From IMG/VR virus record IMGVR_UViG_3300025141_000022, positions 64,001-128,000 of that record: a DNA stretch of 64,000 nucleotides, one strand, 5' to 3'. Below are positions 24,958 through 57,131 of the stretch, in pieces (the first letter of the stretch is position 1; every line of letters begins with the position of its first letter). The notes beneath the pieces are model-generated. The model was not told the origin of the DNA. It worked only from the letters and a program-made list of their open reading frames with translations, and ran no database searches. Position numbers and translations under genes: made by a program. Source of the DNA: a virus.

Positions 24958-26196
24958 ATGCCATATTACGAATTCGATAAAAACGATTTATTCTATAATA
25001 CGATTGAGGCTCATCCTAAATTTGAGTTCTTGGTGTATGATGGAAAGACCTACTACAACAGAAGGCCAGAAGTTGCTGGGCAATTTACAGGCAGCACACC
25101 AAATGCGCCTGTAGGGCACATTAACTTATATGAACTTAATGTAGATAGAGTATCAGCCTCAACGGGACTTATCTACCCTTTTGTGACAAAGGCCGGAAGT
25201 CTCACATCGTTCAAAACTACCAGTACCAGCAATTTCAATAATGATTTTGCCTATGGCGATAAGATGACTGGCAGCTATCCTTTGACAGCATCTTTGCATA
25301 GGCATTATTATTCTGAAGGCGGCACTGCATCTACAAGGCTCTCTTGTAGTGCGCTTCTGAACACGCTTAATTATTATAAATATTTATCCCCACATTATGC
25401 TTATTCTTCATCTACAGCAGTAGGTGATGGCTGGGACAAAGTATCACAAGAAATGTCCGTAATAAGTATACCATCAATTTTTTATGGCTCTTATATTAAA
25501 AAGGGAACCCTAGACTTAAAATTTTACATAACAGGTACACTAGTTGGGCACCTTAACGATATCCACAAGAACGGAGAATTGATTCAGGTTGGTCCTACGG
25601 GGAGTCAAGGTTCTGGCTCTGTAGCCGGCGTTGTTTTGTATAATGAGGGCTTTCTTTTTCTAACAGGAAGTTGGGATTTAACAAGTCCGTCTTTAGACAT
25701 AGATTATCTTAATGACACGACAAATCTGCAAAAATCGAAATGGATCTTTTGGGGCGTAGGCATGGGAGGCTATGAAACCGCAGCAGGCACATCAATAGGC
25801 TCCTCAGATACTGGAGGTTCAAACAGTACCAGAGCCTCAGCTAGTTTTGAAATGTCATATAAGGGAACTACTAATATTCAAACGGTTACAATGTTGGCCC
25901 ATGCACGAAGGGCACAGCTAAACTATTCTAATAATCCAACATACGTTCAGTATGGACAGCCTCGAAACCCTGTTACCAACTCAATGCAATATATTGAGCC
26001 AACAAATCTAAAAATTAAAAACACAGTAACATCAATATACGCGGAACCTTCAGCTAGTTTTGAAAAACACACTTACATAACTAAGATTGGTGTATACGAT
26101 GAAAATAGAAATTTAATTGCTATAGCCAATTTGGCTACACCAGTTAAGAAGACAGAAGATAGAGAATTGACTTTTAAATTAAAGTTAGATATATAA
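24958..26196 (+). CDS. Paralog of the preceding gene; baseplate/tail-collar-related protein
   Basis: C-terminal YITKIGVYDENRNLIAIANLATPVKKTEDRELTFKLKLDI. Shares IKKGT, GxLxD and NYSxNPTY motifs with 23824..24927. Confidence 0.6.
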   Translation: MPYYEFDKNDLFYNTIEAHPKFEFLVYDGKTYYNRRPEVAGQFTGSTPNAPVGHINLYELNVDRVSASTGLIYPFVTKAGSLTSFKTTSTSNFNNDFAYGDKMTGSYPLTASLHRHYYSEGGTASTRLSCSALLNTLNYYKYLSPHYAYSSSTAVGDGWDKVSQEMSVISIPSIFYGSYIKKGTLDLKFYITGTLVGHLNDIHKNGELIQVGPTGSQGSGSVAGVVLYNEGFLFLTGSWDLTSPSLDIDYLNDTTNLQKSKWIFWGVGMGGYETAAGTSIGSSDTGGSNSTRASASFEMSYKGTTNIQTVTMLAHARRAQLNYSNNPTYVQYGQPRNPVTNSMQYIEPTNLKIKNTVTSIYAEPSASFEKHTYITKIGVYDENRNLIAIANLATPVKKTEDRELTFKLKLDI

Positions 26197-26197
26197 T

Positions 26198-26719
26198 ATG
26201 TACATTTTGGGACTTGATATAAGTTCCTCCAAGATCGGAATCGCACTCTTAAAAGACGACAACATTGTTATAAGTGAGTCGATTAAGTTTAAGAGCGGAT
26301 TGTCTTTGGAGGAACGTGCAATTAATTTTGAAAAACGCATGCGCGAGATAGATCGTAAGTATGTTGTCTTTTCTACATACGTTGAACAGCCAGCTATGAT
26401 GTTTAAGGGTGGCAAGACCACAGCATTCACAATGGCTACCTTGCAGCGATTTAACGGTATGTGCTCGTACATCGTAAGAAAAGTATTTGATGACGATCCG
26501 ATTCTTATAAATCCCAGATCTGCCAGAGCCAAGCTTGGCATAAAGACGCCCCGAGGACGCCCAAGTAGAGAAGTCAAAAGGTGTATAATTGAACATGTCG
26601 AAAAAAGGTTTGAGGGTCAATTCAAATACAATCTCACGCACAAGGGAAATCCACAACCGGGAACGGATGACCGGGCCGATGCATTAGTGATCGCTTTAGC
26701 TGGCCCTTTACTTAAGTGA
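26198..26719 (+). CDS. ruvC: Holliday junction resolvase, RuvC-like
   Basis: ILGLDISSSKIGIALL (catalytic D), YVEQP (catalytic E), and C-terminal DDRADALVIA (catalytic Ds); 173 aa. Confidence 0.85.
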   Translation: MYILGLDISSSKIGIALLKDDNIVISESIKFKSGLSLEERAINFEKRMREIDRKYVVFSTYVEQPAMMFKGGKTTAFTMATLQRFNGMCSYIVRKVFDDDPILINPRSARAKLGIKTPRGRPSREVKRCIIEHVEKRFEGQFKYNLTHKGNPQPGTDDRADALVIALAGPLLK

Positions 26720-26721
26720 TA

Positions 26722-26730
26722 ACTATTTAT
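26722..26730 (+). promoter_or_regulatory. Putative late promoter motif ACTATTTAT
   Basis: Intergenic instance directly before the ENWR-leader gene cluster. Confidence 0.5.
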
Positions 26731-26737
26731 TAGTACT

Positions 26738-27739
26738 ATGCGATCACACAAGCTTATTTTAGAGAATTGGCGAAAGTTTTTAAAAGAAGTAGACGCGGGC
26801 CCAACGGCTGCGATGCCTGCTCATTTAGATCCTAAAGTAAAGACACAGGCCGACTATGATACCCTGGACCAGATGGGCTATCAAGTTCTTAAGGAGCTTG
26901 GTCGTGGGCTATTTGGTATAGTATACCAAGTGGAAAATAAGCAAAGCGGAAAAAGGTTAGCCGCCAAGGTTGTTAAAGCAGACAATCGAGAGGCAGAAAA
27001 TTACCAGTTCGCCATGGACAACAAAGCCTCCATGCCAGAAGAGTTTGGTAAATACCTACCAGAAGTATATGAGGTGGCCCCCGGCCACGATGGTTATAAT
27101 ATTATCCTCATGGAAGAGTTAGTACCTTTGGATCCCCAAGTTGCTCAAGAATTGTTTGCAGTGGAAACAGATGATGCAAATCAGGAAACTCCCGATTCTA
27201 AGAAACATGAAAAGATCTTCAGAGATCCAGAAGCTCTAGCTGAATTGGTTGGTGAATCTGTATACGCAAACAGAATATTACATCAATTAAATCTTGGTTT
27301 TAAGGAGATGAGAAGGCTTAGAATGGTAGCAAGAAAAGCAGTTACCAAAAAAGTTCACAACGATCTTGACTCCCTTGTGATGACCGTGTATGGTACTATA
27401 GTAAGAGAGATAGATGATCAGAGCGCAGCAATATATAAAGCTTTCGAAAAAGACTTGAAAGAAACTATGTCATATTATCTCAACAAGCAAATTGTACCAG
27501 TCCACCAGCCAGAGCCAGATGAGGAGTATTTGGAAACATGGACCTCTGGAGGTCTTGAAGGGACAAGAGCTTTGTTTCCAGAAGCTAAAGGTTTAGCACG
27601 AGCTATGAAATATTTTATGCAAGATAAGAATTGGCGACCAAAAGACGTGCATTGGAAAAATGTAATGGCAAGACCATCAACTAAAGATATGGTTATTGTT
27701 GATTTAGGATTATTTGAAAAAGGAATATTTGTATTATGA
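26738..27739 (+). CDS. Protein kinase-like protein with N-terminal ENWR leader
   Basis: Gly-loop LGRGLFGIVY, AAK lysine, hinge IILMEEL, catalytic loop KDVHWKNV, DLG (DFG-equivalent). Leader MRSHKLILENWRKFLKE. Confidence 0.85.
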   Translation: MRSHKLILENWRKFLKEVDAGPTAAMPAHLDPKVKTQADYDTLDQMGYQVLKELGRGLFGIVYQVENKQSGKRLAAKVVKADNREAENYQFAMDNKASMPEEFGKYLPEVYEVAPGHDGYNIILMEELVPLDPQVAQELFAVETDDANQETPDSKKHEKIFRDPEALAELVGESVYANRILHQLNLGFKEMRRLRMVARKAVTKKVHNDLDSLVMTVYGTIVREIDDQSAAIYKAFEKDLKETMSYYLNKQIVPVHQPEPDEEYLETWTSGGLEGTRALFPEAKGLARAMKYFMQDKNWRPKDVHWKNVMARPSTKDMVIVDLGLFEKGIFVL

Positions 27740-28350
27740 AAATTATAATTGAAAATTGGAGAAGATATTTAAAAGAAGAGGTTGATCTTCAGGCTGCACA
27801 ACAGCTTATTGATGCGAACCCATATTTAAAAGGTAAATTAATGGCAACACCAGAGAGTATTATTGAAGGAGAGGGTTATGTTCTTGCCGTATCGGAAGAA
27901 TCACTGGGGCATATTAAAGATCGCCATATGGACGCTAGCGCCCCAGGCTCGCTGTTTCTTCCCGAAGTTGATTTAGGAGAGGTGATGAGAAGCTTGTTGT
28001 CTATGCCCCCAAGCGAAGAGTCAGGAGGCAGAGTGAAGTGGTTAGGCGTGGACGCCGGCATGCCAGTTGGAAAAATGGGCGTTAAACTTGGCGATCCAGA
28101 GGAAGTGGCAAAAATGCAAGATTATAAAATGCCCGGCGGAAGAAACGAAATGGTTAAATTAACTTCTGGTGAACGAGAGCCAACAAATGAAATTAGTCTA
28201 ATCACTGCGGAGCTTGGCGATCTGGGTGGTAAGAAATTATTATCTTTGATCACTGCCTTCCCCGGCGGCATAGAGGTTAATGGAAAAGAGATGCCCATGG
28301 ATAGAAACGATTTTGCTGCACAGGGTTTTTACTTTGTTGTATCACAATGA
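27736..28350 (+). CDS. ENWR-leader protein with toxin-like (RNase-like) domain
   Basis: Leader MKIIIENWRRYLKEE. HIKDRH...GSLF...VG...LITAFP pattern reminiscent of Rhs/CdiA C-terminal nuclease toxins. Confidence 0.5.
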   Translation: MKIIIENWRRYLKEEVDLQAAQQLIDANPYLKGKLMATPESIIEGEGYVLAVSEESLGHIKDRHMDASAPGSLFLPEVDLGEVMRSLLSMPPSEESGGRVKWLGVDAGMPVGKMGVKLGDPEEVAKMQDYKMPGGRNEMVKLTSGEREPTNEISLITAELGDLGGKKLLSLITAFPGGIEVNGKEMPMDRNDFAAQGFYFVVSQ

Positions 28351-29138
28351 AACTCCTACTTGAAAATTGGCGACTGTATTTGAACGAGATTACAACCCTT
28401 GATTCTGAACTAAAGCAGGGTTTTGCCGAAGCAATAGAAGATTCGCAATTCTGGACGCTACCCAATGCCGAAGATGATGTTGACATTGGCAACCACCCTG
28501 ACGAGATGGAAACCCCAGCCAGCGAGGCATTGAGAATTGCGCTAAACGAAAAAGCACAAGAGCTTGACACTGATTTATATTTTATTGTAACTGTTTCAAA
28601 TGTACATGTGTTATCTAAAGATGATCCGCATGGAGGGTATCCAAGTAATTGGATGTCGCATGGTATGTATCAGGGCCCTCAATCCGGCCATCATGTGATA
28701 TGGATAGAGCTTCGACCATTGGGAGATGATTATGAAATTTCTGAACTGAATCCTTCTGAATTGATAAAGAAGATCTCAAGAACCATTAACCATGAAATGG
28801 TACATTACAAACAACTAAAAAAGCAAGCTGAATCAAAGGGGATTAGTGAAGAAGACGCATGGCAGCAAATGATAGATGACCCGGCCCAACTACCACAAAC
28901 CAGCGATAGAACAGACTATCTGTCAAGGCATCCAGAAGTTGACGCTTACGCTCATGAAGCCGCCGAAGAATTAATAGATAAATATGGCGGTCGAAGGGCT
29001 CTACAACTAATTAAACAAAGAGACTCTGATGTTGTTGGAGTTTTGGCAGACTACAGAGAAGTTTTCAAAGACGACCGAGAAACAATGAAAAAGTTTTTAA
29101 AAAAGCTGTATTCACAAATTATGAGCAAGGAACAATAG
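28347..29138 (+). CDS. ENWR-leader protein with zincin-like HExxH metallopeptidase motif
   Basis: Leader MKLLLENWRLYLNE. TINHEMVHYKQ followed by YLSRHPEVDAYAHE (downstream Glu ligand). Confidence 0.65.
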   Translation: MKLLLENWRLYLNEITTLDSELKQGFAEAIEDSQFWTLPNAEDDVDIGNHPDEMETPASEALRIALNEKAQELDTDLYFIVTVSNVHVLSKDDPHGGYPSNWMSHGMYQGPQSGHHVIWIELRPLGDDYEISELNPSELIKKISRTINHEMVHYKQLKKQAESKGISEEDAWQQMIDDPAQLPQTSDRTDYLSRHPEVDAYAHEAAEELIDKYGGRRALQLIKQRDSDVVGVLADYREVFKDDRETMKKFLKKLYSQIMSKEQ

Positions 29139-29139
29139 A

Positions 29140-29703
29140 ATGAAACACGAATTGATAATGGAAAATTGGCGACAGTTCTTAAATGAAGAAGATGAAGAGC
29201 AGCTTGAAGAAGGCTGGAAAGAAAAAGTAGCCGGCTTAGCAGCAGTCGGGTCCATAGGGCTTGGGGCGCCTAATATGGCACACGCTGGACCTGGAGATAA
29301 TATAAGAGATAAATATCAATCAACTTTGCAAATGGCAAAAGAAAAAGGACAACAAGTTATCGATAAATTACCGGCGCCAATTGATCGCACATCTGGTGCA
29401 GGAGCTGAAGCAGAAAGTGGAACGTCTACTTCTGATGGCTATCAACAAAATGCTGATGGAACTCACGAATTTAGAGTTAAATTGCCTATTGAGAAATATG
29501 AAACACACGGCGGCAAGACTTTTGGCGAGATGAAGGCTCGAAACGGCCTTATGCAGGCGTTGCAGCAGTCGGGGATTGTAACCGGTGATACGATATCCGG
29601 TATATCGCTGTCTTATGATCGAGCTAATGGTCAAGTAGTTGCTAATTGGAGCCCAACATCATCGGCGACGGCTTCTGCTATTTATAAAGCTATGGGCAAC
29701 TGA
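29140..29703 (+). CDS. ENWR-leader protein with cryptic signal-peptide-like segment
   Basis: Leader MKHELIMENWRQFLNEE, then LEE-GWKEKVAGLAAVGSIGLGAPNMAHA. Confidence 0.7.
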   Translation: MKHELIMENWRQFLNEEDEEQLEEGWKEKVAGLAAVGSIGLGAPNMAHAGPGDNIRDKYQSTLQMAKEKGQQVIDKLPAPIDRTSGAGAEAESGTSTSDGYQQNADGTHEFRVKLPIEKYETHGGKTFGEMKARNGLMQALQQSGIVTGDTISGISLSYDRANGQVVANWSPTSSATASAIYKAMGN

Positions 29704-29711
29704 AAATACTT

Positions 29712-30548
29712 ATGAAGCTCTTAATGGAAAACTGGCGGTATTACTTAACCGAAGAACAACAACTATCGGATGAGTTTTTAGAGTTTCTGTTTTCCGACAG
29801 AATAAGTGCTTTTATGAGCGATTCCACACTAAATGAGGTGGAGAGTTTAGAAACCAAAGCTAAAAGGCTAGCCAAGAAATATGGCGTCCCGTTTGCTATA
29901 GCTATGGGCATACTTACTGGTGCAGCAGGAAGCAAAGTAGTTGGAGACATGCAAAGTCCCGCTAACGACCCAGAAATTGTACAACAGATAGAGAAGCCCT
30001 CTCCGCGCTCCTCATTGCCGCCAGGGTATTCTGATCTGACTAATCTGCAGGCTATGGAAAAAGCATGGGAGACTATTGATGGTAAGCAACATCAAGCCGC
30101 CCCCGTTTCTGGCGGATATCCAACAGCGCAAGGTATGATGCCATTTACATATGTGCCTGCTGTAGAGTTATCTGGTGGCGACATTCTACCTATGTCACTA
30201 ATGACCGCCGATGAGTACAGGGCATTCATACTGGATAAACTAGAGAGTGGAAACCCACAGGAGGTTATTTACCTTAAGAATATGGTTTATGGGGATACCG
30301 CAAAATGGCTTTCAGGAACGGGAGAGTCAGACTTCAGGGTCACTAATGGGCTACCAGTTTTGCCACCAGAGTGGTCGATTGCACATGATGTATTCGCTAG
30401 CGAAGTAGAAGAACGAATAAATAAAGTAGTAGAATATTTGCAGGAAAATCCAGATCATAGAGAAGCCGTTGCTGTGGAGCTTAATCTTGCTAGCGTAGAT
30501 GATTTAGAACCTTTCATAAACAGTCAGTATGCAAAATTGGCTAGATGA
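29712..30548 (+). CDS. ENWR-leader protein with basic-hydrophobic (membrane anchor-like) segment
   Basis: Leader MKLLMENWRYYLTEE; KAKRLAKKYGVPFAIAMGILTGAAG. Confidence 0.7.
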   Translation: MKLLMENWRYYLTEEQQLSDEFLEFLFSDRISAFMSDSTLNEVESLETKAKRLAKKYGVPFAIAMGILTGAAGSKVVGDMQSPANDPEIVQQIEKPSPRSSLPPGYSDLTNLQAMEKAWETIDGKQHQAAPVSGGYPTAQGMMPFTYVPAVELSGGDILPMSLMTADEYRAFILDKLESGNPQEVIYLKNMVYGDTAKWLSGTGESDFRVTNGLPVLPPEWSIAHDVFASEVEERINKVVEYLQENPDHREAVAVELNLASVDDLEPFINSQYAKLAR

Positions 30549-30558
30549 TTAAAAACGC

Positions 30559-30587
30559 TTGACGCCATAGATCAACTGTGTTATATT
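30559..30587 (+). promoter_or_regulatory. Sigma70-type promoter (TTGACG-17 bp-TATATT, extended -10 TG)
   Basis: TTGACG at 30559-64, TG at 30579-80, TATATT at 30582-87; intergenic; followed by an AGGAGG RBS. Confidence 0.75.
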
Positions 30588-30603
30588 ATATGCAGGAGGA
30601 AAT

Positions 30604-30762
30604 ATGAAAACTTTTAGAGCGTTTGTTGCTGGAGTTATTTTCGCATTTGTTATTGCTGGGACCGTTGTGGCGGTATGTGGCACCGAAACAAACTATATTG
30701 ATCAGGTCATGTACGAGGATGAAGAAATAGAAAGACTCATCCTACTTGATGTTTCAGAATAA
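30604..30762 (+). CDS. Small membrane protein (52 aa), not in supplied ORF track
   Basis: MKTFRAFVAGVIFAFVIAGTVVAVCGTETNYIDQVMYEDEEIERLILLDVSE; strong AGGAGG RBS; single N-terminal hydrophobic helix plus acidic tail. Confidence 0.75.
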   Translation: MKTFRAFVAGVIFAFVIAGTVVAVCGTETNYIDQVMYEDEEIERLILLDVSE

Positions 30763-30773
30763 GAAGTTATAAT

Positions 30774-31709
30774 ATGACTTCAAAATATAAAATTATTTCA
30801 GATATTCTGGGCGATAGTTATCAGGTCAGCGGTGAGCGCCTGTTTCATTGCCCGTACTGCAAACACCATAAAAGAAAATTATCAATTAATATTGATAAGA
30901 ATGTATACAAATGCTGGATTTGTGATACGAATGGTCGTAATTTAAGACGCATTGTCCGCCGCTTTGGGACGTTTAAGCACCTTCAAGAGTGGGACACTAT
31001 CTCAGGTCGAATTGATATCAACGACTTTGATAATCTGTTTCGTGAAGAAGAGAAATCAACAGAGATAGAGCAGATAATAAAACTACCCGAAGATTTTATA
31101 TCCTTGGCCAACAACGATTTGCCTAAATCATCCAGATGGCCACTGAGGTATCTAAAGCATAGGGGTGTTACCAAGAAAGATGTACTAAAATGGAAGATAG
31201 GCTATTGTGATTCTGGGCCCTATGCGGGTAGAATTATTATACCATCGTTTAATATGGACGGGCATGTAAATTATTATATCGCTAGAACGTATGATAATTC
31301 TTGGCCAAGATACAAAAATCCGCCAGCATCAAGAAATGTTGCATTTAACGAACTCTATATTGATTGGAATAAAGATTTAGTAATTGTAGAGGGTGTTTTT
31401 GATGCTATTATAGCCGGAAACAGTGTGCCTATTTTGGGCTCAACTCTTCGACCAAGTTCTCAACTAGTACGAAAAATTATCTACAATGATACGCCGGTTT
31501 ATTTAGCTCTTGACCAAGATGCCCAGCAAAAAGAAAACAAGATTATCAAAACACTTTTGCAATATGACATCGAGCTTTACAAAATTGATGTGTCTGGTTA
31601 TGAAGATGTCGGAGAGATGAGTAAAGAAGAGTTTTCTAAACGTAAGGAAAATGCGTACTTTATCTCTCAAGAAGACTATTTATTGACAGCGGCTATAAAT
31701 ACTATCTAA
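30774..31709 (+). CDS. DNA primase (zinc finger + TOPRIM), T4 gp61/DnaG-like
   Basis: HCPYC...KCWICD zinc finger, RIIIPSF..G..NYYIAR, LVIVEGVFDAI and LALDQDA TOPRIM motifs. Confidence 0.9.
   Translation: MTSKYKIISDILGDSYQVSGERLFHCPYCKHHKRKLSINIDKNVYKCWICDTNGRNLRRIVRRFGTFKHLQEWDTISGRIDINDFDNLFREEEKSTEIEQIIKLPEDFISLANNDLPKSSRWPLRYLKHRGVTKKDVLKWKIGYCDSGPYAGRIIIPSFNMDGHVNYYIARTYDNSWPRYKNPPASRNVAFNELYIDWNKDLVIVEGVFDAIIAGNSVPILGSTLRPSSQLVRKIIYNDTPVYLALDQDAQQKENKIIKTLLQYDIELYKIDVSGYEDVGEMSKEEFSKRKENAYFISQEDYLLTAAINTI
31675..31683 (+). promoter_or_regulatory. Putative late promoter motif ACTATTTAT (in primase 3' end)
   Basis: About 40 nt upstream of the MKI-leader gene cluster starting at 31724. 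Confidence 0.4.
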
Positions 31710-31723
31710 ATGAGGAGCTTTTT

Positions 31724-31912
31724 GTGGACGAAAGAGAACAAAAGATAAGATATGCCATTCAAAAGGCTATCAAAGAAATGAACTCTAAGCCAAGCGAAGA
31801 GTCAGTAGATTTGTTTGAAAAGGTTACTACGCTAATAAAAGAGCAGAAACTCAATCATGAACAACAGGCCGTTTTAATTGGAAAATTACTCGACTGGGAC
31901 TTAAACAAATGA
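31724..31912 (+). CDS. Small hypothetical protein, degenerate helix-leader (IRYAIQKAIKE)
   Basis: 62 aa, GTG start with GAGGAG RBS. Confidence 0.6.
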   Translation: MDEREQKIRYAIQKAIKEMNSKPSEESVDLFEKVTTLIKEQKLNHEQQAVLIGKLLDWDLNK

Positions 31913-32172
31913 AGATTGACATGAAAACATTAAGAGAGGTAGTTAAGCAAGAGCTTACAGAGGTGTGTGGAGCAGAAGCCGAAAACGCTCAGCAAGCTGT
32001 TGCGGGCGCACAAAGTGTTTCTTTAAGCAAGTTGCCTTTTGAGCAGTGGGCAGATCAGGTAGTTCAGATGTCGGGTAGAATGTCAGTTAATGAATTGCCA
32101 AAATATATTAATTATTATGATGCCTGGATGGCTGGTGTGGCTCCAGAATCTATCATTGATACAATAAAATAA
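31909..32172 (+). CDS. MKI-leader small protein
   Basis: MKIDMKTLREVVKQELTE; coupled to the previous gene. Confidence 0.7.
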   Translation: MKIDMKTLREVVKQELTEVCGAEAENAQQAVAGAQSVSLSKLPFEQWADQVVQMSGRMSVNELPKYINYYDAWMAGVAPESIIDTIK

Positions 32173-32186
32173 AAAGGAATAATATT

Positions 32187-32513
32187 ATGAAAATTACAAA
32201 AGCACAACTTAAGCGAATAATTTTAGAAGAACTTAAAGCCGTGACAGAACTTGACAAACTTGATGATCAGGATCCGACTGCAGAAAGGCCCCCGGAGTCC
32301 ACCATGGATACATCAAAGATTGATCGAACTGGTGCCAAAGCTGGTGAAGAGATGCGTGACGTACAACTGGCAACAAAGTATTTGAAGAAAATCGACAACC
32401 ATAAAGAATTCGGACAACTACTCGCAGCCGTTCTAAAGCATGCCGAACAAGATCCACAGATGCAGGCTGTTCTTAAAAGAATGTTTCAACGCCGTCGAGA
32501 TGTGGGAGTATAG
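32187..32513 (+). CDS. MKI-leader small protein
   Basis: MKITKAQLKRIILEELKAVTE; AAGGA RBS. Confidence 0.75.
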   Translation: MKITKAQLKRIILEELKAVTELDKLDDQDPTAERPPESTMDTSKIDRTGAKAGEEMRDVQLATKYLKKIDNHKEFGQLLAAVLKHAEQDPQMQAVLKRMFQRRRDVGV

Positions 32514-32523
32514 GGAGAACACA

Positions 32524-32994
32524 GTGGCTAAAAGAAAAAATGTAAAGAGAATTGACCCGAGATACTTTTTGGATGAAACAGTGCATAGAGGGCTGGATGA
32601 AGGTGTCGTAAAAAAGCCCTTTGGAGACACCATGATCACGCACGACGATTATGAGCAGTCTGACGAGCCTCCTCGCGATGACACTGGTGAGCCGCCCCTC
32701 ACACAACGCTCGCAACGTAAACTTAGCCACGATCATATGCTGGCAAGAATTAACGATGCAAAGCTATACCTCCAACAACAAGAGGACCCAGTTGCGTCAG
32801 AACTCTCGCAGGAGCTTGATGGCGTAATACACACTATGGAGTTGCTAAATGATTATTTTATGGGTGATATGCCCGCAGACGCGAATCCATTGAGCCGAAG
32901 ACCTCCCGGTGGAGGACTCGGTGGTCCGGGTAAAGGCCCCAGGCATATGCGCGGAGACTCGGGAGGCGGCTACCCAGAAGAGGAGATGTCGTGA
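32524..32994 (+). CDS. DPRYFLxE-leader protein (true start probably GTG 32524)
   Basis: GGAG RBS at 32514-17 before an in-frame GTG; this removes the overlap with the previous gene. Begins (M)AKRKNVKRIDPRYFLDE. Confidence 0.7.
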   Translation: MAKRKNVKRIDPRYFLDETVHRGLDEGVVKKPFGDTMITHDDYEQSDEPPRDDTGEPPLTQRSQRKLSHDHMLARINDAKLYLQQQEDPVASELSQELDGVIHTMELLNDYFMGDMPADANPLSRRPPGGGLGGPGKGPRHMRGDSGGGYPEEEMS

Positions 32995-33704
32995 AAATCA
33001 CAAAAGCAAAATTAAAAGAAATCATTATGGAAGAGATCGTTAAAGAGTCTCTAGATGATTATCATTTCGGTTTTGACCCAACACACAATCAGCCAAAAAT
33101 TAGTTCTGCTCAGGCAGCAGAAGAGGCGCTGTGGCACTGGTATGAAGAAGCGTTTATGAATAATGCGATGCCTCTTCTATTAGAATCATACCCCGAGGTT
33201 GCAGGTTATAGTCCATCTAATCCATCAGAGCTTCTTGATGTGCTATCAGATCTTAATCGACAATTTAAAGAAAATACAGTGGGCAGACACTCTCAGGAAG
33301 ACGATCCTATGATGAATGCACCAATGATGGAGAACAAAATGAAGATTACAAAAAAAGAATTTAGACAGATTGTCTTGGAAGAGTTGAGAGAGTGCATGTG
33401 TGATTCTGCACCTATTGTTGAGTACGAGACAGAAGAAGGCGAGATCGAAAGAATAGTAAACAAGTTACGTCAAGCTATGATGCACAAGTCAGAGCAAGAG
33501 GTAGGCCCGGCAGTTCAGGCCCTCAGAATGTTTATTGATTCTCTTGAAATGGCACAATCCGAGGAAGAGCTTGACCAGTTGGTACAAGACCTATCTGGCT
33601 CATCAGTACCAGAGTTTGAGGCGTCCCCAATAGTCGAAAGTACGATGCCGCTTGCGATGCTAAAAGAGGTCTTAAAGAGGCATTTTAGCACGCTTTTGAA
33701 ATAA
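32991..33704 (+). CDS. MKI-leader protein with second internal MKI leader
   Basis: MKITKAKLKEIIMEEIVKE at the start; MKITKKEFRQIVLEELRE from an internal ATG at 33339 preceded by GGAGAACAAA. Confidence 0.75.
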   Translation: MKITKAKLKEIIMEEIVKESLDDYHFGFDPTHNQPKISSAQAAEEALWHWYEEAFMNNAMPLLLESYPEVAGYSPSNPSELLDVLSDLNRQFKENTVGRHSQEDDPMMNAPMMENKMKITKKEFRQIVLEELRECMCDSAPIVEYETEEGEIERIVNKLRQAMMHKSEQEVGPAVQALRMFIDSLEMAQSEEELDQLVQDLSGSSVPEFEASPIVESTMPLAMLKEVLKRHFSTLLK

Positions 33705-33762: not shown

Positions 33763-33855
33763 ATGCCGGCCAGCGCCCTGCTGGCTATTATTTGTAGTTA
33801 CCTAGCTATGTTTGCGCTAGGGTGGCTTATTGGCGTGTCCACTAAGGAGAGTTAA
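33763..33855 (+). CDS. Hydrophobic micro-ORF (30 aa; possibly 36 aa from GTG 33745)
   Basis: MPASALLAIICSYLAMFALGWLIGVSTKES. Fills the gap between the promoter and the Mre11-Rad50 gene, ending 1 nt before its start; RBS weak. Confidence 0.45.
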   Translation: MPASALLAIICSYLAMFALGWLIGVSTKES

Positions 33856-33856
33856 A

Positions 33857-36800: not shown

Positions 36801-37018
36801 CTGTGTCTAATTTACCAAAGGGCGATCTATTTATATTAGATGAACCCGGCACTGCCTTAGATGCCGACAACATGGAAGGATTTGTTAGAATTTTAGATAT
36901 GGTTAAGAATTACTACAAGACAGTGTTGTTGATTTCGCACATGGATACGCTAAAGGACGTGGCAGATGTTGTAATTGCAATAGAAAAGAAAGACGGATTT
37001 GCCAATGTCAACGTCTAA
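33857..37018 (+). CDS. Fused Mre11/SbcD (gp47) nuclease - Rad50/SbcC (gp46) SMC ATPase
   Basis: HIADTH, HCGDI, GNHD, LGDIH phosphoesterase motifs; Walker A GKNYSGKSS; coiled coil with CTYC hook; MGSGAE signature; Walker B FILDEPG; ISH H-loop. Start probably TTG 33857 (AAGGAG RBS). Confidence 0.92.
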   Translation: MKFAHIADTHIKNLKYHYEYKVVFEQLYKRLKEEKVDCIVHCGDIAHTKTQISPEFVELCSDFFRNLESIAPTYIILGNHDGNLKNSSRQDALTPIVEALELPNLHLLKNSGETHINNDVCLNVLSVFDEDNWMAPTESDKINIALYHGSISGVKTDIGWVMEHGEHDISIFDKFDFAFLGDIHKTNQAIDREGRIRYPGSTIQQNHGETNDKGILIWDIHNKQDWDVYHIAFENPKPFVTIELTPKGRLRKNKKIPTGARLRLVSNNNLPLDKMKKAVEVAKHRYNPESITFLNRAAGSRGNVDDLTGNMMKTNLRDMAVQEKFIREYLKDYELEEGAIQKVFDLNKKYNKLVEDGEEVSRNINWKLQSLEWDNLFNYGKGNRIGFDKLNGIVGIFGKNYSGKSSIIDSVLYTLFNSTSKNERKNLNIINQNCDVGRGRLRIKIGDEEYQIERTSEKYIRKLKGETTQEAKTDLEFTSTNRILGEDKVHNGLTRNETDKNIRKMFGTLDDFLLTSMASQNESLAFIKEGSTRRKEILAKFLDLEIFDKKFKMAKEDVADLRGAIRRLQGRDFDEDIDVASQELLMAEEEIEVHKKECQDCEVTIEQLKETLKLVEEKISSIPQEVIDIVQVKDDFNAKQEQTTSLKSKIEVLYADRKIKQELFSKINDFTSKYDIDELKDKKQKIDEIEESIENVLVSLHREQQEQSRNKKKEQLLKEHEYDPDCTYCCENKFVKEAHVAVANIVLNERKIKSFTLSVDSYRDDLEAMKPQQVSDRIDKYNHILESRAELSNEIANLNISIERNKLAAERTQRESAELQEKLDLYEKNKEAIESMQKLIKLRQGTMKKIDINAASLKVCQEELADLYMAQGSCEQKLQHLEDLKEEFENLQEEYSAYDLFMRSMHTSGISYDIIKKKLPAINNEIAKVLANVVNFEVFFEDDGKRLNIFIKHPQYEPRPLEMGSGAEKSIAAMAIRLSLLSVSNLPKGDLFILDEPGTALDADNMEGFVRILDMVKNYYKTVLLISHMDTLKDVADVVIAIEKKDGFANVNV

Positions 37019-45102: not shown

Positions 45103-45206
45103 CGAAGTGGATGCTTCAACCAGTTAGACACTGTTGCAAAGGCAAGATAATCACGCGGGTAGCGCCCGCACATTTTTTTAATAAACGGAGATACAGTAAT
45201 GAGTAG
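45081..45206 (+). CDS. Possible micro-ORF (41 aa) MKRQTWTAKWMLQPVRHCCKG...
   Basis: ATG in the second repeat copy preceded by GGAGG; not in the ORF track; short. Confidence 0.35.
   Translation: MKRQTWTAKWMLQPVRHCCKGKIITRVAPAHFFNKRRYSNE
45155..45180 (+). terminator. Possible intrinsic terminator
   Basis: GCGGG-TAGCG-CCCGC stem followed by ACA and a T7 run; the stem is short. Confidence 0.35.
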
Positions 45207-45747
45207 ATGGGGAAAACCAACCAAAAATAACAAGAGAAGAGATCCAAGATACTTCTTGAACGAACAAGAGGAAAAGGAAGCACAGCGCGATCCATCAGGT
45301 GGCGCCCCAGCTGCCCAATTGGATGAAAAAGAAGTTCTACCACTAATCCAAAGCTTCTATAAGGCTATGCGCGCAGCCCGCGATGGGGTGCAATCTTCCC
45401 GTAAAGCTTTAGGCGATGACTGGGTTAAAAAACAAGCCCAAAAATATTCCCAAAGAGCCGGCGATCAAGAACAAAATCTTAAGATGTGGTTTCAAACCAC
45501 GGTGGGCGACGGCATGTGGCGCGCCGCTCGTGCCATGGCTCCTGTTTATGCTGACATTAGAAAAGGCGCCCGAGGATCTGCTAACTCGATAGATATCATC
45601 GCACACCATGCTGGCGACATGGCAGAGAAATTTTTGCAACAAACAAAGGGCATGAAAGCCAAAATGGCATTTCTAGAACAATTTGACGAGTTAACCAAAG
45701 AGTATTTTGAAAACACTGAGAGATTTGGAAAGGGACACATACTGTGA
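45199..45747 (+). CDS. DPRYFLxE-leader protein
   Basis: MSRWGKPTKNNKRRDPRYFLNE; GGAG RBS; immediately upstream of the prohead protease. Confidence 0.75.
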   Translation: MSRWGKPTKNNKRRDPRYFLNEQEEKEAQRDPSGGAPAAQLDEKEVLPLIQSFYKAMRAARDGVQSSRKALGDDWVKKQAQKYSQRAGDQEQNLKMWFQTTVGDGMWRAARAMAPVYADIRKGARGSANSIDIIAHHAGDMAEKFLQQTKGMKAKMAFLEQFDELTKEYFENTERFGKGHIL

Positions 45748-46352
45748 AAGTACTTTTACGAGAATACTATGAATTATGTGAAGGCGGTGTTTGCCAAGAT
45801 CTTTTAACTGAAGATGAAAAGAGATATGTGGCAAACGGCGGCTTAATTTTGACTGGAAAACTACAAGAAGCAGATGTGCAAAACGGGAACGGCCGTGTGT
45901 ATCCGCAAAGAGTATTACAGAGAGAAATGCAAAATTACCAAAAACTTGTAAAAGAAAGAAGAGCCCTTGGAGAGTTAGATCATCCTGAAGATTCAGTTAT
46001 TAACCTTAAGAACGCATCTCATATGGTTACAGAGGTGTGGTGGGATGGTTCTGCGGTTATGGGTAAAGTTAAAGTTTTAAATACGCCATCTGGCAAAATA
46101 TTACAAGAATTAGTGAGTGATGGTGTTAAGCTGGGAATTTCGTCCCGTGGCTTGGGATCTGTTAGCGAATCACAAGGGAGAACAATTGTCGAAGACGATT
46201 TCACATTAATCTGTTTTGACTTCGTATCAGAACCATCAACGCCAAATGCATTTATGCTTAAAGAAAATAAGAATGCGCCAAATATTTTTACCAAAGCAGA
46301 CAAAATCAATCGCGCATTAAACGACATATTGGGAGATTATGACAATGAGTAA
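45744..46352 (+). CDS. Prohead maturation protease (T4 gp21-like)
   Basis: LQEADVQNGNGRVYP, ALGELDHP, SHMVT (catalytic His), LNTPSGK, LGISSRGLGS (catalytic Ser). Confidence 0.93.
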   Translation: MKVLLREYYELCEGGVCQDLLTEDEKRYVANGGLILTGKLQEADVQNGNGRVYPQRVLQREMQNYQKLVKERRALGELDHPEDSVINLKNASHMVTEVWWDGSAVMGKVKVLNTPSGKILQELVSDGVKLGISSRGLGSVSESQGRTIVEDDFTLICFDFVSEPSTPNAFMLKENKNAPNIFTKADKINRALNDILGDYDNE

Positions 46353-47361
46353 AAAGAACTTTTCTTCATATGATGATATTCATAGGCTACATGAAGGATT
46401 TAGAAAATGGATAGGTGAGGAACGTGGACCCCCCTCCCCGCTTGGATCCGAAGAAGATGATTCGGGGATTGCTGCCGATGTTGAGCAGGCATATAAATCC
46501 GGCCCAGCATCCGTCCGCGCTTTCATGAACACACCAGAAGGTTCAGATCCGAAAGTTAGACAATTCTTGCATCGAGCACAAGCTGAATATGACGGTTCGG
46601 CATCGGACGACGATATTTCAATCTCGCAGGATGGTGCTAAATCTTTGATGGATATGGTTCCGACTCAAAAATATATTGACCTTATGCAGTCGGTATCCTT
46701 TCCTTTGGGAAGTGTCGGCACTCTTAAAAAGGCAATCGAATCTAAGAAGGGTTTTGGCCCAATTTCGGTTTCGGACCAGTACGTCCTAGATGGACACCAT
46801 CGTTGGTCGGGCCAGTTTGCAATTACGCCAGACGGAACGATCTCGGCTACTAACATCTCGCTCCCTGGAGATGCCCAGCAAAAATTAGCTTCGCTGCAGC
46901 TAGCAATTGCAGCTATTGATCCAAATGCGAAAGATCCGCACCCATCTAAAGGCGGCAGCGCTGCAACGAATATATTAGGAAAAGGCGCCAAAGAGATTTA
47001 CAAAAAGATTTTGGCCAACGTTAACAACCAGACTGATAAAAAGGCCCCCGGCCCACTCCTGAATGATGCCATGATTTCTGAAATTGCACAGTCTCAGGAT
47101 CCAGTTATTTTACAATGGGCGGGCTTGAAGCCTGGACAGGCGACTGAGCCCCAGCAGATCAGAGACGCAATTGCTCAAAGGGTAGCTAATAATCTAGCAC
47201 AGCTTCCCAATTTTGCTGCCGGTGCCCCTGATCGCCCCGACATGCCTCAGCTAGATCATGATTCGATTGGTGGTGCAAAAGGATACCAAAAGATTAAAAG
47301 CCGCCTCGCAACAGGCGATCTAAATGTTGTACCTCCGTTTGATAAAGGAAAGACAGGATAG
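46339..47361 (+). CDS. ParB/sulfiredoxin-fold domain protein with degenerate ENWR-like leader
   Basis: MVPTQKYID and VLDGHHRWS ParB-N motifs; N-terminal RLHEGFRKWIGEE; start may be ATG 46345. Confidence 0.7.
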   Translation: MTMSKKNFSSYDDIHRLHEGFRKWIGEERGPPSPLGSEEDDSGIAADVEQAYKSGPASVRAFMNTPEGSDPKVRQFLHRAQAEYDGSASDDDISISQDGAKSLMDMVPTQKYIDLMQSVSFPLGSVGTLKKAIESKKGFGPISVSDQYVLDGHHRWSGQFAITPDGTISATNISLPGDAQQKLASLQLAIAAIDPNAKDPHPSKGGSAATNILGKGAKEIYKKILANVNNQTDKKAPGPLLNDAMISEIAQSQDPVILQWAGLKPGQATEPQQIRDAIAQRVANNLAQLPNFAAGAPDRPDMPQLDHDSIGGAKGYQKIKSRLATGDLNVVPPFDKGKTG

Positions 47362-47363
47362 TT

Positions 47364-47795
47364 ATGAACAAGACAGAATTAAAGAAGATGTTGAAGCCAC
47401 TAATTAAAGAGTGCATAAAAGAAGCAATATTTGAAGAAGGTGTTCTATCTGGCATTATAACAGAAGTTACGCAAGGACTAGGCTCGACTCAGCAAGTGGT
47501 TACAGCCTCTCCACCCGCACAAGAGCCAGTTGTGGATGAAGCACTTCTAGAAGCCGAGAGGTCAAGAAAGGCCAAACAACAAGAAACAAGAAAAAAGATG
47601 CTAGCCGCCATTGGAAAAAGCACAATGATGGACTCTGGCATGGACTTGTTTGAGGGCACCGAGCCACTACGCGAAGGTGGGGTGCCAAACGCTACTCCAT
47701 CTAAAGGGCCTTTGTCTGGCACCGCACCATCGGATGCAGGAGTTGATATTTCATCTTTGTTTAATAGCAATTGGAAGAAGTTGGCCCAAGGATAA
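47364..47795 (+). CDS. Protein with MKI-like helix leader
   Basis: MNKTELKKMLKPLIKECIKEAIFEE. Confidence 0.65.
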   Translation: MNKTELKKMLKPLIKECIKEAIFEEGVLSGIITEVTQGLGSTQQVVTASPPAQEPVVDEALLEAERSRKAKQQETRKKMLAAIGKSTMMDSGMDLFEGTEPLREGGVPNATPSKGPLSGTAPSDAGVDISSLFNSNWKKLAQG

Positions 47796-54080: not shown

Positions 54081-54089
54081 ACTATTTAT
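54081..54089 (+). promoter_or_regulatory. Putative late promoter motif ACTATTTAT
   Basis: Intergenic, right after the terminator and upstream of the scaffold/capsid genes. Confidence 0.6.
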
Positions 54090-54150: not shown

Positions 54151-55254
54151 ATGTCATCAATGTTACAGCAGGCTATTATAGACGCATCGGCCTTAAGAGA
54201 GGCCGCCGTTAAAAACGCAGAAGCCGCTATTATTGAAAAGTACACACACGAAATTAAGAATGCCGTAGATTCCCTTTTGGAACAAGAGGAAGAATTAGGG
54301 CTAGAAGAAGATCCTTTGGCTATGGAAGAGCCTGGAGCCGAAGAAGCTCCTGCCGCAGTTCCCGAAGCCCCAGCGGCGCACACCGAGGGAGAAAATCTTT
54401 GCCCCTGCCCAGAAGATGAGGAGGAAGTGGAGATTGTTTTTGATGAGTTGGCAAGCCAATTTGCTGCAGAACAGGATGTTGGCAAGTCTCATGAAGAGTT
54501 AGCCGGCGGCATTCCACAAGCCGCGCCCCCTACACCTCTAGGAGAGGGCAATAAGAAGGAAGAAGAAGTTGTCGAAGAAGAATTAGTCGAAGAAGGCGAC
54601 GAAAATGTCGAAATCTCAGAGGAGCTATTAAAAAGTGTTATTTTTGAACTCACTGAAGACGAAAATGTTGAACTAGATGACGACAAGGTTAAAGAAATAG
54701 CAGAAAAGCTAGCTGTAGATATTAAAGTTGTGCCAAATGCACCAAATGCAGCCGCTCAGTTTACACCATCTGGCGAACAAGAGCATGCAGCCGACTTAGA
54801 ATTGGCCGCTCAGCAAGATGACGAGTTAGCTGAAGAAAACGACGAACTCAAGAAAGCTGTAAAAGAACTTGAGGAAAATATTAAAGATTTAAAAACTGAA
54901 AACAAGAGATATAAAGATACTGTTTTGCAATTAAAGGATAAATTTGACGAAGTGAATCTTTCAAATGCAAAACTACTATATACGAACCGAGTATTGGAAA
55001 GCACCTCCTTGAATGAGCGACAAAAAGAACAAATTGTCGAAACTCTTTCAAATGCCAGTTCGATTAGCGAGGCGAAGGTTATTTTTGAAACACTTCAAAG
55101 CACAGTGGGAGCTTCTACTAAGAAAACTCCACAATCACTGAGCGAAGCTGTGACAAGAGGAGCCTCAACCATGCTGCCTAGAAGGCAAAAAAGACAAAAT
55201 GTTAACGATCCAACAACGACTAGATGGAGACAACTAGCCGGGATCGAAAAATAA
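54151..55254 (+). CDS. Prohead scaffold/core protein (T4 gp22-like)
   Basis: Very acidic, coiled-coil, many L/I-x-E sites, directly upstream of the major capsid gene; LNEVNLSNAKLLY-type segment; AGGAG RBS. Confidence 0.75.
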   Translation: MSSMLQQAIIDASALREAAVKNAEAAIIEKYTHEIKNAVDSLLEQEEELGLEEDPLAMEEPGAEEAPAAVPEAPAAHTEGENLCPCPEDEEEVEIVFDELASQFAAEQDVGKSHEELAGGIPQAAPPTPLGEGNKKEEEVVEEELVEEGDENVEISEELLKSVIFELTEDENVELDDDKVKEIAEKLAVDIKVVPNAPNAAAQFTPSGEQEHAADLELAAQQDDELAEENDELKKAVKELEENIKDLKTENKRYKDTVLQLKDKFDEVNLSNAKLLYTNRVLESTSLNERQKEQIVETLSNASSISEAKVIFETLQSTVGASTKKTPQSLSEAVTRGASTMLPRRQKRQNVNDPTTTRWRQLAGIEK

Positions 55255-55271
55255 AAAGGAGAAAACAAAAT

Positions 55272-57131
55272 ATGTCTGTATTAGAACGTTTGACAGAAGG
55301 TATCGTTGAACGCAATCTTGGCCAGGAAGGTGCTGCTCTACTTAAGAAGTGGGAAAGAACCGGACTGCTTGAGGGTGTTCGTAACGATCATGAAAAACAA
55401 ACAATGGCTCGCTTGCTTGAAAATCAAGCTAGAGAGCTTCTACGCGAATCTTCTACCATGGCCGCTGGCGATGTTGAAGGTTTTGCAGCCGTTGCATTTC
55501 CGATTGTTCGGCGTGTATTCGGTGGCTTGATTGCTAACGATCTCGTTAGTGTTCAGCCAATGAGCCTCCCATCGGGACTTATCTTCTTCCTAGATTTTAA
55601 GTATTCCCCAGATGCTGGTGGCAACGCCAGTGGTGGTGATTTCCCCCGTGTCGGTGTCAATGAGGATACATCACTTTATGGTGGTGGCCGAGTTGGTGCT
55701 CAGATCACAGGTGGTGTTGATCTAACTCCATCTGGTTCAACAGTTGCAGGTGCTGGCGCTTCACGCGATCACAGTTTCTACAACTTAGGTTCAGGTTACT
55801 CTAGCCCAACGGCTTCGGTTGACTTGACCATCACTTGTATCGCATCCGGTACTCTCGGAGCAGTTACTTCTAGTAACATGGTGTCCTTGACACATGCTTC
55901 TATTGGTGCTAGCACCGTTACAACCTCTCTTGAGGAGCTTTGCCGATACGATCCAGATCTTTCTGGTTCCGTCGTCACAGTTTGTACAGCACCCGGTGTT
56001 GCTGGCTTAAGCCAGATGAACCGCCTCAACTTAATCGCAATGCAACCCGCTCAGGGTGATGAGATTGATGTTGGTAAGGCTAAGTTGGTTCGTCGTCTGA
56101 CTCACCTTCGTGGTAAGTCTGCTGCTGCAGCTACAACTTCACCTGAAGGTCTGTCTCTAATCAACGCAACCGACACATCTCTTGTGTTCGTTTTCGAAGG
56201 TGGAACAGGTCTGAACGAGGGCGCAGTTGCTGGTGAGACAACTGGTACCATGACGGTCGATTTCCCAATTGATGATGACTTCATTGCAGGTCCATCCGTT
56301 GGTTCGGTTGTTGGTGATGCTACATGGGGACTGGAAGCCAATCCAGACATCCCAGAGATTGACATCGACGTTAGTTCGGTGGCTATCACTGCGATGACCA
56401 AGAAGCTCAAGGCTAAGTGGTCACCAGAGTTGGGGCAGGATCTTAACGCCTACCACAACTTGGATGCAGAGGTTGAGCTAACTGGTATTCTTTCTGAGCA
56501 AGTTGCTCTTGAAATTGATCGTGAGATTCTCAACGATCTTGTTCAGGGTGCTGCTGCCGGAACTTATTACTGGTCACGCCGCCCCGGTCGATTCACCGAC
56601 CGTGTTACTGGTAGACACATTAATGTCCTAGGTGAAGGTACTTCAGCTACGGATGTCGGTGGACCTGAGTTCACTGGTAATGTGTCTGAGTGGTATGAGA
56701 CACTTGTTGAGACAATCAACGATGTTTCCGCTCAAATTCATCGTAAGACTCTACGCGGTGGAGCTAACTTCTTGGTGGTTTCCCCAGAAGTTGCTAACAT
56801 CCTTGAGTTCACAAGTGGATTCCGCGCTAGCGTAACCCATGATGATGATAAGGGCTCTGTTGGAGCAGTTAAGGCTGGCTCTATTTCTAAGAAGTGGGAC
56901 GTTTGGGTTGACCCATACTTCCCCCGCAATGTGATCCTTGTTGGTCGTCGCGGAAGCAGCTTCCTAGAAAGCGGCTATGTTTACGCTCCATATGTACCAC
57001 TACAGATGACTCCCACCATCTTTGGACCAGAGGACTTCGTGCCCCGTAAGGGCGTGATGACTCGCTATGCCAAGAAGATGGTACGTCCAGATATGTATGG
57101 TGTAGTCGTTGTCCAGAACTTGTTAGGCTAG
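55272..57131 (+). CDS. Major capsid protein (T4 gp23-like; true start ATG 55272)
   Basis: FPIVRRVFGGLIANDLVSVQPMSLPSGLIFFLDF, TKKLKAKWSPELGQDLNAYHNLDAEVELT..LSEQVALEIDREIL, GYVYAPYVPL, PRKGVMTRY; AGGAG RBS; biased codon usage. Confidence 0.97.
   Translation: MSVLERLTEGIVERNLGQEGAALLKKWERTGLLEGVRNDHEKQTMARLLENQARELLRESSTMAAGDVEGFAAVAFPIVRRVFGGLIANDLVSVQPMSLPSGLIFFLDFKYSPDAGGNASGGDFPRVGVNEDTSLYGGGRVGAQITGGVDLTPSGSTVAGAGASRDHSFYNLGSGYSSPTASVDLTITCIASGTLGAVTSSNMVSLTHASIGASTVTTSLEELCRYDPDLSGSVVTVCTAPGVAGLSQMNRLNLIAMQPAQGDEIDVGKAKLVRRLTHLRGKSAAAATTSPEGLSLINATDTSLVFVFEGGTGLNEGAVAGETTGTMTVDFPIDDDFIAGPSVGSVVGDATWGLEANPDIPEIDIDVSSVAITAMTKKLKAKWSPELGQDLNAYHNLDAEVELTGILSEQVALEIDREILNDLVQGAAAGTYYWSRRPGRFTDRVTGRHINVLGEGTSATDVGGPEFTGNVSEWYETLVETINDVSAQIHRKTLRGGANFLVVSPEVANILEFTSGFRASVTHDDDKGSVGAVKAGSISKKWDVWVDPYFPRNVILVGRRGSSFLESGYVYAPYVPLQMTPTIFGPEDFVPRKGVMTRYAKKMVRPDMYGVVVVQNLLG

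Follow-up and report, generated by a model that had tools for sequence, protein, structure and literature searches.

In this study, we describe an array of five consecutive genes in a 64,000-nucleotide window (the whole stretch of DNA that was analysed, bases 64001-128000 of a 184,913-bp IMG/VR virus record) whose protein products all begin with the same short peptide, here called the ENWR leader. The source is an uncultured marine T4-like myovirus, whose genome codes for a large terminase, a portal, a prohead protease, a T4-type major capsid protein (MCP), sheath, tube and baseplate wedge. Its nearest isolates by MCP are distant (37-45% identity) and comprise Microcystis phage Mel-JY01, Flavobacterium phage immuto and Rhodothermus phage RM378. 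The array has a RuvC-like resolvase as its neighbour on one side and DNA primase on the other, and consists of the following genes:

26738..27739, + strand: P1, 333 aa; leader 26738-26788, ending FLKE; payload weakly kinase-like
27736..28350, + strand: P2, 204 aa; leader 27736-27777, ending YLKE; invariant H59 and H64
28347..29138, + strand: P3, 263 aa; leader 28347-28388, ending YLNE; HExxH payload
29140..29703, + strand: P4, 187 aa; leader 29140-29187, ending FLNE; acidic linker and a Gly/Ala-rich, mildly hydrophobic stretch
29712..30548, + strand: P5, 278 aa; leader 29712-29753, ending YLTE; one moderately hydrophobic segment

The open reading frames (ORFs) are closely packed or overlap by 4 bases, and the proteins start, in order, with MRSHKLILENWRKFLKE, MKIIIENWRRYLKEE, MKLLLENWRLYLNE, MKHELIMENWRQFLNEE and MKLLMENWRYYLTEE. 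All five have in common the 14-residue start M-K-(L/I)-(L/I)-x-E-N-W-R-x-(Y/F)-L-x-E, and in a six-frame scan of the 64 kb ENWR came up exactly five times, never more than 9 residues from an array start codon, where about 0.2 occurrences would be expected by chance according to our own estimate from residue frequencies. Past the leader, the five proteins have no mutual similarity (blastp 1e-5). The ORF list, the six-frame scan and blastp agree with an earlier note made from these letters, which had described five consecutive, otherwise unrelated genes with an ENWR leader, and its further statement that every leader ends in L-x-E is true of all five. Its labels for the payloads, on the other hand, have to be revised. 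The HExxH motif of P3 stands and is invariant across the P3 family, and no convincing solved relative of the P3 fold was found by Foldseek against the PDB or by VIA-align (wide). The kinase label of P1 is traced to weak matches, one to Pkinase (E 6e-6, 26.2 bits, under the curated cut-off of 31.7) and one to phrog_18305 'kinase' (E 1.5e-5). P2 had been called toxin-like, a label without basis because profile searches and Foldseek against the PDB returned no family match and no fold match for this protein. The description of P4 and P5 as membrane or export-type proteins is weak, since each has a single mildly hydrophobic stretch (Kyte-Doolittle 19-residue maxima of 1.09 and 1.53).

Our findings support the view that the leader is an N-terminal tag, modular and exchangeable, rather than a constituent of one particular fold. 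In the AlphaFold2 model of P2 (pLDDT 91.5), residues 1-3 and 6-12 fall below 50, and in that of P3 (pLDDT 93.5) a leader helix spans residues 2-12, followed by a coil at 13-19 and a domain from residue 20; both models place the leader as a low-confidence helix outside a folded domain predicted to begin at about residue 18-20. Moreover, other metagenomic phages have homologues of P2 and P3 in which the same domain follows a different N-terminal peptide, such as MENFNKFLAE, MKITRKKLRRLLKE, MNNFDLKKYLAEG, MTNLIRKYVRHLLNE or just MRLLE. When IMG/VR was scanned with a degenerate DNA pattern for M-K-x-(hydrophobic)-(hydrophobic)-E-N-W-R, which gives lower bounds, the leader was found on at least 120 contigs with at least 176 ORFs beginning with it. 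Among the matches listed, at least 152 payloads (147 non-redundant ones plus the five of the window) fall into about 100 blastp families, and Pfam names only about 20 of these, including HAD, GNAT, Peptidase_M23, Amidase_2, SET, NUDIX, RNase_T, DUF192 and PGDYG. The possibility raised in the earlier note that the motif is an intrinsic domain always linked to one fold is ruled out by these roughly 100 families, by the occurrence of the same payloads behind other leaders and by the position of the leader in the models.

The profile scan and catalogue of downstream domains that the earlier note had proposed gave the same picture of N-terminal matches and varied payloads. In five whole genomes, about 45 matches of the leader profile scored above the best decoy (5-11 per genome), and nearly all of them were N-terminal, at residue 1 or else at an internal Met from which translation probably starts. 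Each of the four complete relatives has 5-10 canonical copies, mostly arrayed. In addition, shortened variants (MNKKWKNFINE, MNDKWKKYLSE and similar) are present in the phage's own genome, and orthologues of their payloads bear the full tag elsewhere. The pattern matched 122 times in 596 Gb of prokaryote genomes, a number near the chance level of about 70 that we estimate, and only 4 of them carry the full leader. We show that the leader is confined to a clade of 180-203-kb T4-like phages having the protease described below, and no description of it was found in the searchable literature, either under the leader strings or under capsid targeting in cyanophages and metagenomes. Two of the 4 full ENWR-tagged genes of the prokaryote scan lie on one 11-kb contig (L337) of a 'Woesearchaeota' metagenome-assembled genome, which is most likely a mis-binned phage fragment. 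A 'Phage_portal' Pfam match among the ORFs found with the pattern was set aside; by our assignment it probably belongs to L062, an unrelated protein in which ENWR occurs by chance and (Y/F)-L-x-E is missing.

Across genomes, the leader codons differ at synonymous sites with the residues kept, and the DNA upstream is unrelated; therefore, selection acts on the peptide. Within one genome, by contrast, many leaders are near-identical in DNA. Short remnants of the leader were also observed, namely LFENWRGFLKED-stop directly before a tagged gene (upstream of G014 74952) and 11-codon ORFs such as MKLLLENWRGI-stop (L076, L080, L095). The near-identical leader DNA together with these scars at junctions indicates that leader DNA serves as a recombination site, and cassettes seem to be exchanged by recombination within it. 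The same two features could be read to mean that conservation acts at the level of nucleic acid, as a translation-initiation or recombination cassette with a functionless peptide, which we consider extremely improbable in view of the freely varying synonymous sites, the unrelated upstream DNA and the fact that other leader types, of different DNA, have the same L-x-E junction. Another proposal is that the leader controls folding or stability, either as a recognition tag for the phage's own chaperonin or as a degron that times the lifetime of the protein. The genome does code for Cpn60 and Cpn10, and the AlphaFold2 models present the tag as an exposed amphipathic helix; however, neither the L-x-E boundary nor the placement of tagged genes in the head operon is predicted by it, and we know of no chaperonin or degron system that uses such an N-terminal tag, so that this proposal appears very unlikely.

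The end of the leader coincides with the cut motif of T4 gp21, and the phage itself encodes a protease of this type. Among 152 unique leaders, position frequencies were counted where the search pattern fixed no residue; at these unconstrained positions, Y/F is found in 86% at position 11, L/I/V in 83% at position 12 and E in 75% at position 14. The motif [LIVM]xE occupies positions 12-14 in 110 of the 152 leaders and occurs anywhere in positions 10-19 in 135 of them. Information reaches 2.65 bits at position 14 and then falls to 0.9, 0.5 and 0.35 bits, that is, conservation collapses just after the E, in agreement with the idea that the leader ends at a protease motif. The junction does not depend on the ENWR sequence. 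In the P3 family, [LIVMF]-x-E stands immediately before the payload start in 55 of 89 members, with 8 more offset by one residue, regardless of leader type and equally for domains embedded in a longer protein. Apart from this, a tandem arrangement was seen (L178, L186 loci), in which one protein has first a type B and then a type C leader (both described below), and in the long proteins P0049, P0050, P0065, P0070 and P0131 two domains are separated by a leader-like segment with L-x-E at its end. Such tandem and internal leaders suggest polyproteins which the head protease could cut apart.

The protease and the other head genes that bear on the argument lie downstream in the window:

45199..45747, + strand: x182, head-operon gene just upstream of the protease, with a type C leader (MSRWGKP..KRRDPRYFLNE)
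45744..46352, + strand: gp21-type prohead protease (phrog_207, E 1.9e-54)
46339..47361, + strand: x340, gene that separates the protease from x143; its start, ..HEGFRKWIGEE, is ENWR-like but degenerate
47364..47795, + strand: x143, conserved head-module protein by the protease, present in all 5 genomes
54151..55254, + strand: scaffold-like acidic helical protein directly before the MCP, with ACTATTTAT at 54081 and no family match
55272..57131, + strand: MCP (phrog_138, E 5.4e-67), likely starting at the second Met

The protease that the earlier note placed at 45744..46352 is of the gp21 type. The protein is 34% identical to T4 gp21, and its GELDHP and GISSRGLGS are aligned with GELNHP and GVSSRGLGS, blocks which we take to hold the catalytic His and Ser. 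Of the tag-bearing genomes, 7 reach a completeness of at least 90% (180-203 kb), and all 7 encode a phrog_207 protease. In the T4 record sequences, gp23 reads ..GSFLTE|AEIGG, gp24 reads MAKINELLRE|S and gp67 reads ..RNFLIE|GEE, where the bars stand for cut positions that we take from the literature. It is documented that T4 gp21 cuts after L/I-X-E, and that the first 10 residues of IPIII are enough for packaging, targeting being influenced by residues 4 and 7, and processing by residues 8 and 10 (PMC9026906). In the present phage, ..ELLRE|S of the MCP was aligned by BLASTP with the T4 gp23 site FLTE|A, and the pro-domain would be cut after ELLRE (55446-55448). The longest MCP ORF (55224-57131) starts 16 codons early; in four orthologues the first residue is the Met of MSVL(Q/D)KLTEG, equivalent to position 55272 here. 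For the scaffold-like protein, position and composition point to a gp22-like role.

We favour, with a confidence a little above even, the explanation that the ENWR leader is an analogue of the T4 capsid-targeting sequence (CTS), which loads cargo into the prohead and is then trimmed off by the gp21-type protease. The prediction for the leader is an amphipathic helix at the N-terminus, one face of which holds L4, L5, W8, Y/F11 and L12, and this helix would dock the newly made protein onto the scaffolding core during prohead assembly. The protease would then cut after the terminal (Y/F)-L-x-E and free the payload inside the capsid, from which it would probably enter the host together with the DNA. 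The cargo of the window would thus comprise a kinase-like protein, an HExxH protein and three unknown proteins.

New support for the tag reading comes from tagged genes within the head operon. When the phage's own head genes were mapped onto the leader loci, 15 ENWR genes were found directly after the head-operon gene x189 (9 with x104 on their other side, and 6 where the contig ends). Another 2 are located between the protease and x143, and 5 at the RuvC/primase junction, the slot used in the window. One payload family occurs both in the x189 slot and in the RuvC|primase slot, and a P2 homologue is located directly after x189 in the head operon of locus L077. In the window itself, x340 is homologous (E 1.3e-14) to an ENWR-tagged 322-aa protein in the same slot of L044, and the alignment extends into the leader. 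The tagged head-operon slots correspond to the T4 positions of core genes 67, 68 and 22.

Two further leader types are found in these phages. The type C leader (MARRKNVKRIDPRYFLNE or MSRWGKP..DPRYFLNE) was present at 104 IMG/VR loci (L168-L267 listed) on small proteins with varied bodies, and 47 of 109 type C genes lie between x104 and the protease, 11 of these at a contig end just after x104. The type B leader (MKLTKSKLKQIIKEEL-like) is carried by three genes just after the primase in the window and by up to 8 genes per related genome (G014 and G029 arrays). It also occurs on a gene between the protease and x143 in another genome, and it takes the place of ENWR on P2 and P3 homologues. By eye, the start of x143 resembles type B as well. 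In the window, the genes concerned are:

31909-32172, 32187-32513 and 32991-33704, + strand: type B genes, with MKITKAQLKRIILEEL-like leader sequence
32440-32994, + strand: type C-like gene, containing DPRYFLDE

The gene positions allow other readings of the leader to be weighed. It could be a docking helix for a different assembly, such as a replication or nucleotide-metabolism complex or the tail or baseplate hub, which is retained on the protein. The location of the array between resolvase and primase, the nucleotide- or phosphate-handling payloads (HAD, NUDIX, exonuclease, 5'-nucleotidase-like) and the fact that the majority of tagged genes lie outside the head operon would all fit. However, this leaves unexplained why conservation ends sharply at L-x-E, why the L-x-E junction recurs under many different leaders, why tagged genes occupy head-operon slots and why peptidoglycan hydrolases (M23, Amidase_2) are among the payloads, and we regard it as unlikely. 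A reading closer to ours accepts targeting to the prohead core and supposes that the payloads act only in the prohead or are degraded or expelled, instead of being injected effectors. It is in line with the presence of x340 and the type C gene x182 where T4 has the core proteins gp67, gp68 and gp22, proteins which in T4 are cut to fragments that mostly leave the head (PMC9026906). Nevertheless, P2 and P3 are compact and well folded, and at 185-245 residues they would be too large to leave a closed shell, and the enzyme payloads have no obvious substrate inside the prohead; this outcome therefore seems to us distinctly improbable.

In a system like that of T4, the cargo would be expected to be expressed late, together with the head proteins. 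Two copies of a promoter-like motif accompany the array:

26722..26730, + strand: ACTATTTAT promoter-like motif, 15 nt before the first ATG of the array
29678..29685, + strand: second CTATTTAT copy, 34 nt before P5 and inside the end of P4

In the genome, CTATTTAT is strand-biased, with 16 copies on the + and 2 on the - strand, and ACTATTTA occurs 8 times in the window where 3.5 occurrences are expected. Counting motif-gene pairs within 120 nt upstream in 5 genomes, we found CTATTTAT ahead of the tail sheath gene in 5/5 genomes and of the scaffold-like gene in 4/5, and also ahead of baseplate wedge, tail tube and fibre genes and of several tagged arrays. The ACTATTTAT-type motif differs from the T4 late promoter TATAAATA. 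The claim of the earlier note that a late-type motif precedes the array holds as far as a motif is there and is common to sheath and scaffold genes; its designation as a late-type signal is plausible rather than proven, because the motif also precedes some non-structural genes. A scan of 25800-31200 for sigma-70 promoters and terminators gave nothing above shuffles. As a separate observation, ACTATTTAT copies often stand just 7-35 nt before the start codon, so close that a ribosome-binding site would have little or no space, and short-leader or leaderless late mRNAs are therefore possible.

Several points weigh against the packaging explanation. Firstly, L-x-E is a short motif that is frequent by chance, and the E is missing at position 14 in a quarter of the leaders. 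Secondly, scoring of the leader profile, strict or softened, against the MCP pro-domain, scaffold, protease, portal and other head proteins gave nothing above reversed-sequence decoys, so that at the level of sequence the leader has no statistical link to known head proteins; the likeness to the MCP pro-domain ARLLENQARELLRE suggested in the earlier note was for this reason dropped as evidence. Thirdly, 160 of 194 tagged genes are in loci without a head marker, the array of the window itself is placed between resolvase and primase, and the slot frequencies given above are biased, as the loci were found via the leader itself. Fourthly, the HAD, NUDIX and GNAT payloads look like ordinary cytoplasmic enzymes that need not be packaged, and the promoter-like motif also stands before some non-structural genes, for example, as judged by eye, a PhoH-like gene. 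Finally, tblastn of P2, P3 and a tagged HAD payload against GenBank phages gave no match, and neither a cultured relative nor a virion proteome was found.

The packaging explanation can be extended, more tentatively and at somewhat less than an even chance, to the clade of marine T4-like phages as a whole. These widespread, uncultured 180-203-kb phages may use a few interchangeable N-terminal address peptides (ENWR, KLTKxxLKxIIKEEL and RRKNxKRIDPRYFLNE) to load a hypervariable stock of at least 100 enzyme families into the capsid, which would be released by the protease at L-x-E, also inside fused multi-domain proteins. The cargo would be shuffled via leader DNA, and the cassettes would move between the head operon and other hot spots.

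The closest known parallel is the CTS of T4 IPI, IPII and IPIII and the propeptide of Alt, which are removed by gp21. They are likewise short, N-terminal, carried by unrelated proteins and ended by L/I-x-E, and T4 likewise encodes the gp21-type protease. The ENWR leader, however, has 14 residues where the T4 CTS has 10, and by eye its only common features with MKTYQEFIAE are the MK start and the L-x-E end, which makes it an analogue and no demonstrable homologue. Per genome, 5-11 ENWR genes were counted, and the payload families, many of them enzymes, number about 100, as opposed to three small internal proteins and Alt in T4. Also unlike in T4, the ENWR leader is accompanied by at least two other types, which replace one another on the same payloads. 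A conserved tag with diverse payloads is already known from the T-even internal proteins, among which only the CTS is conserved (PMC3012670, PMC9026906). What is new here is the sequence of the tag, the scale, the enzyme-rich cargo and the co-existence of swappable leader types.

Other systems are alike in part. In the giant phages phiKZ, 201phi2-1 and SPN3US, a remote homologue of gp21 cuts many proteins of the head interior after Glu (PMC9026906). Processing after a short motif ending in E resembles the ENWR junction, but here one 14-residue leader recurs almost unchanged, unlike the propeptides of the giant phages. The latter are long and are not known to form one shared short tag. The cargo-loading peptide of encapsulins illustrates that a short terminal peptide suffices to address unrelated cargo into an HK97-fold shell; encapsulin peptides differ in being usually C-terminal and uncleaved, in binding the shell protein directly and in serving no delivery to another cell. 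Polymorphic toxins, to which the organization of the array can also be compared, similarly combine a conserved N-terminal trafficking part with a variable payload and recombine at the conserved part, as the leader scars indicate for ENWR. They have no capsid link, however, and at the ENWR loci no immunity genes were seen and most payloads are not recognisable toxins.

If the packaging explanation is true, abundant ocean phages would deliver many pre-made enzymes with their DNA into the host, among them kinase-like and metalloprotease-like proteins, cell-wall hydrolases, acetyltransferases and a SET-domain protein, whereas in T4 delivery with the DNA is known for very few proteins. Candidates for injected effectors could then be listed from metagenomes by a simple sequence rule, dozens of unknown families would be marked as likely host-takeover or counter-defence factors, and the leaders would widen the choice of short peptides with which foreign proteins can be loaded into phage capsids. 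The swapping of different leaders on one payload represents a natural experiment on what makes such a tag work.

With regard to the source, near-identical DNA is present in sequencing runs of marine or seawater metagenomes, and no RNA run is among those listed. A blastn search of 26000-31000 against GenBank phages gave no match. Some features outside the array were also recorded. The genome (G000) has its own chaperonin pair outside the window, with a Cpn60 match at E 2.4e-64 and a Cpn10 match at E 3e-4, the latter at the Pfam cut-off:

154358-154663 and 167511-169079 of the genome, outside the window: chaperonin genes, Cpn60/Cpn10 matches

Within the window, 4362-15518 is a 3718-aa ORF in the baseplate/fibre region, and its 4831-aa counterpart in a relative has a ACTATTTAT-type motif upstream. 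Lastly, 33830-37018 is a single 1062-aa ORF with a TTG start, which matches SbcD-like profiles at residues 10-290 and SbcC-like profiles at residues 220-1060, so that, judged from these matches, the two nuclease subunits (SbcD/SbcC) appear to be fused.

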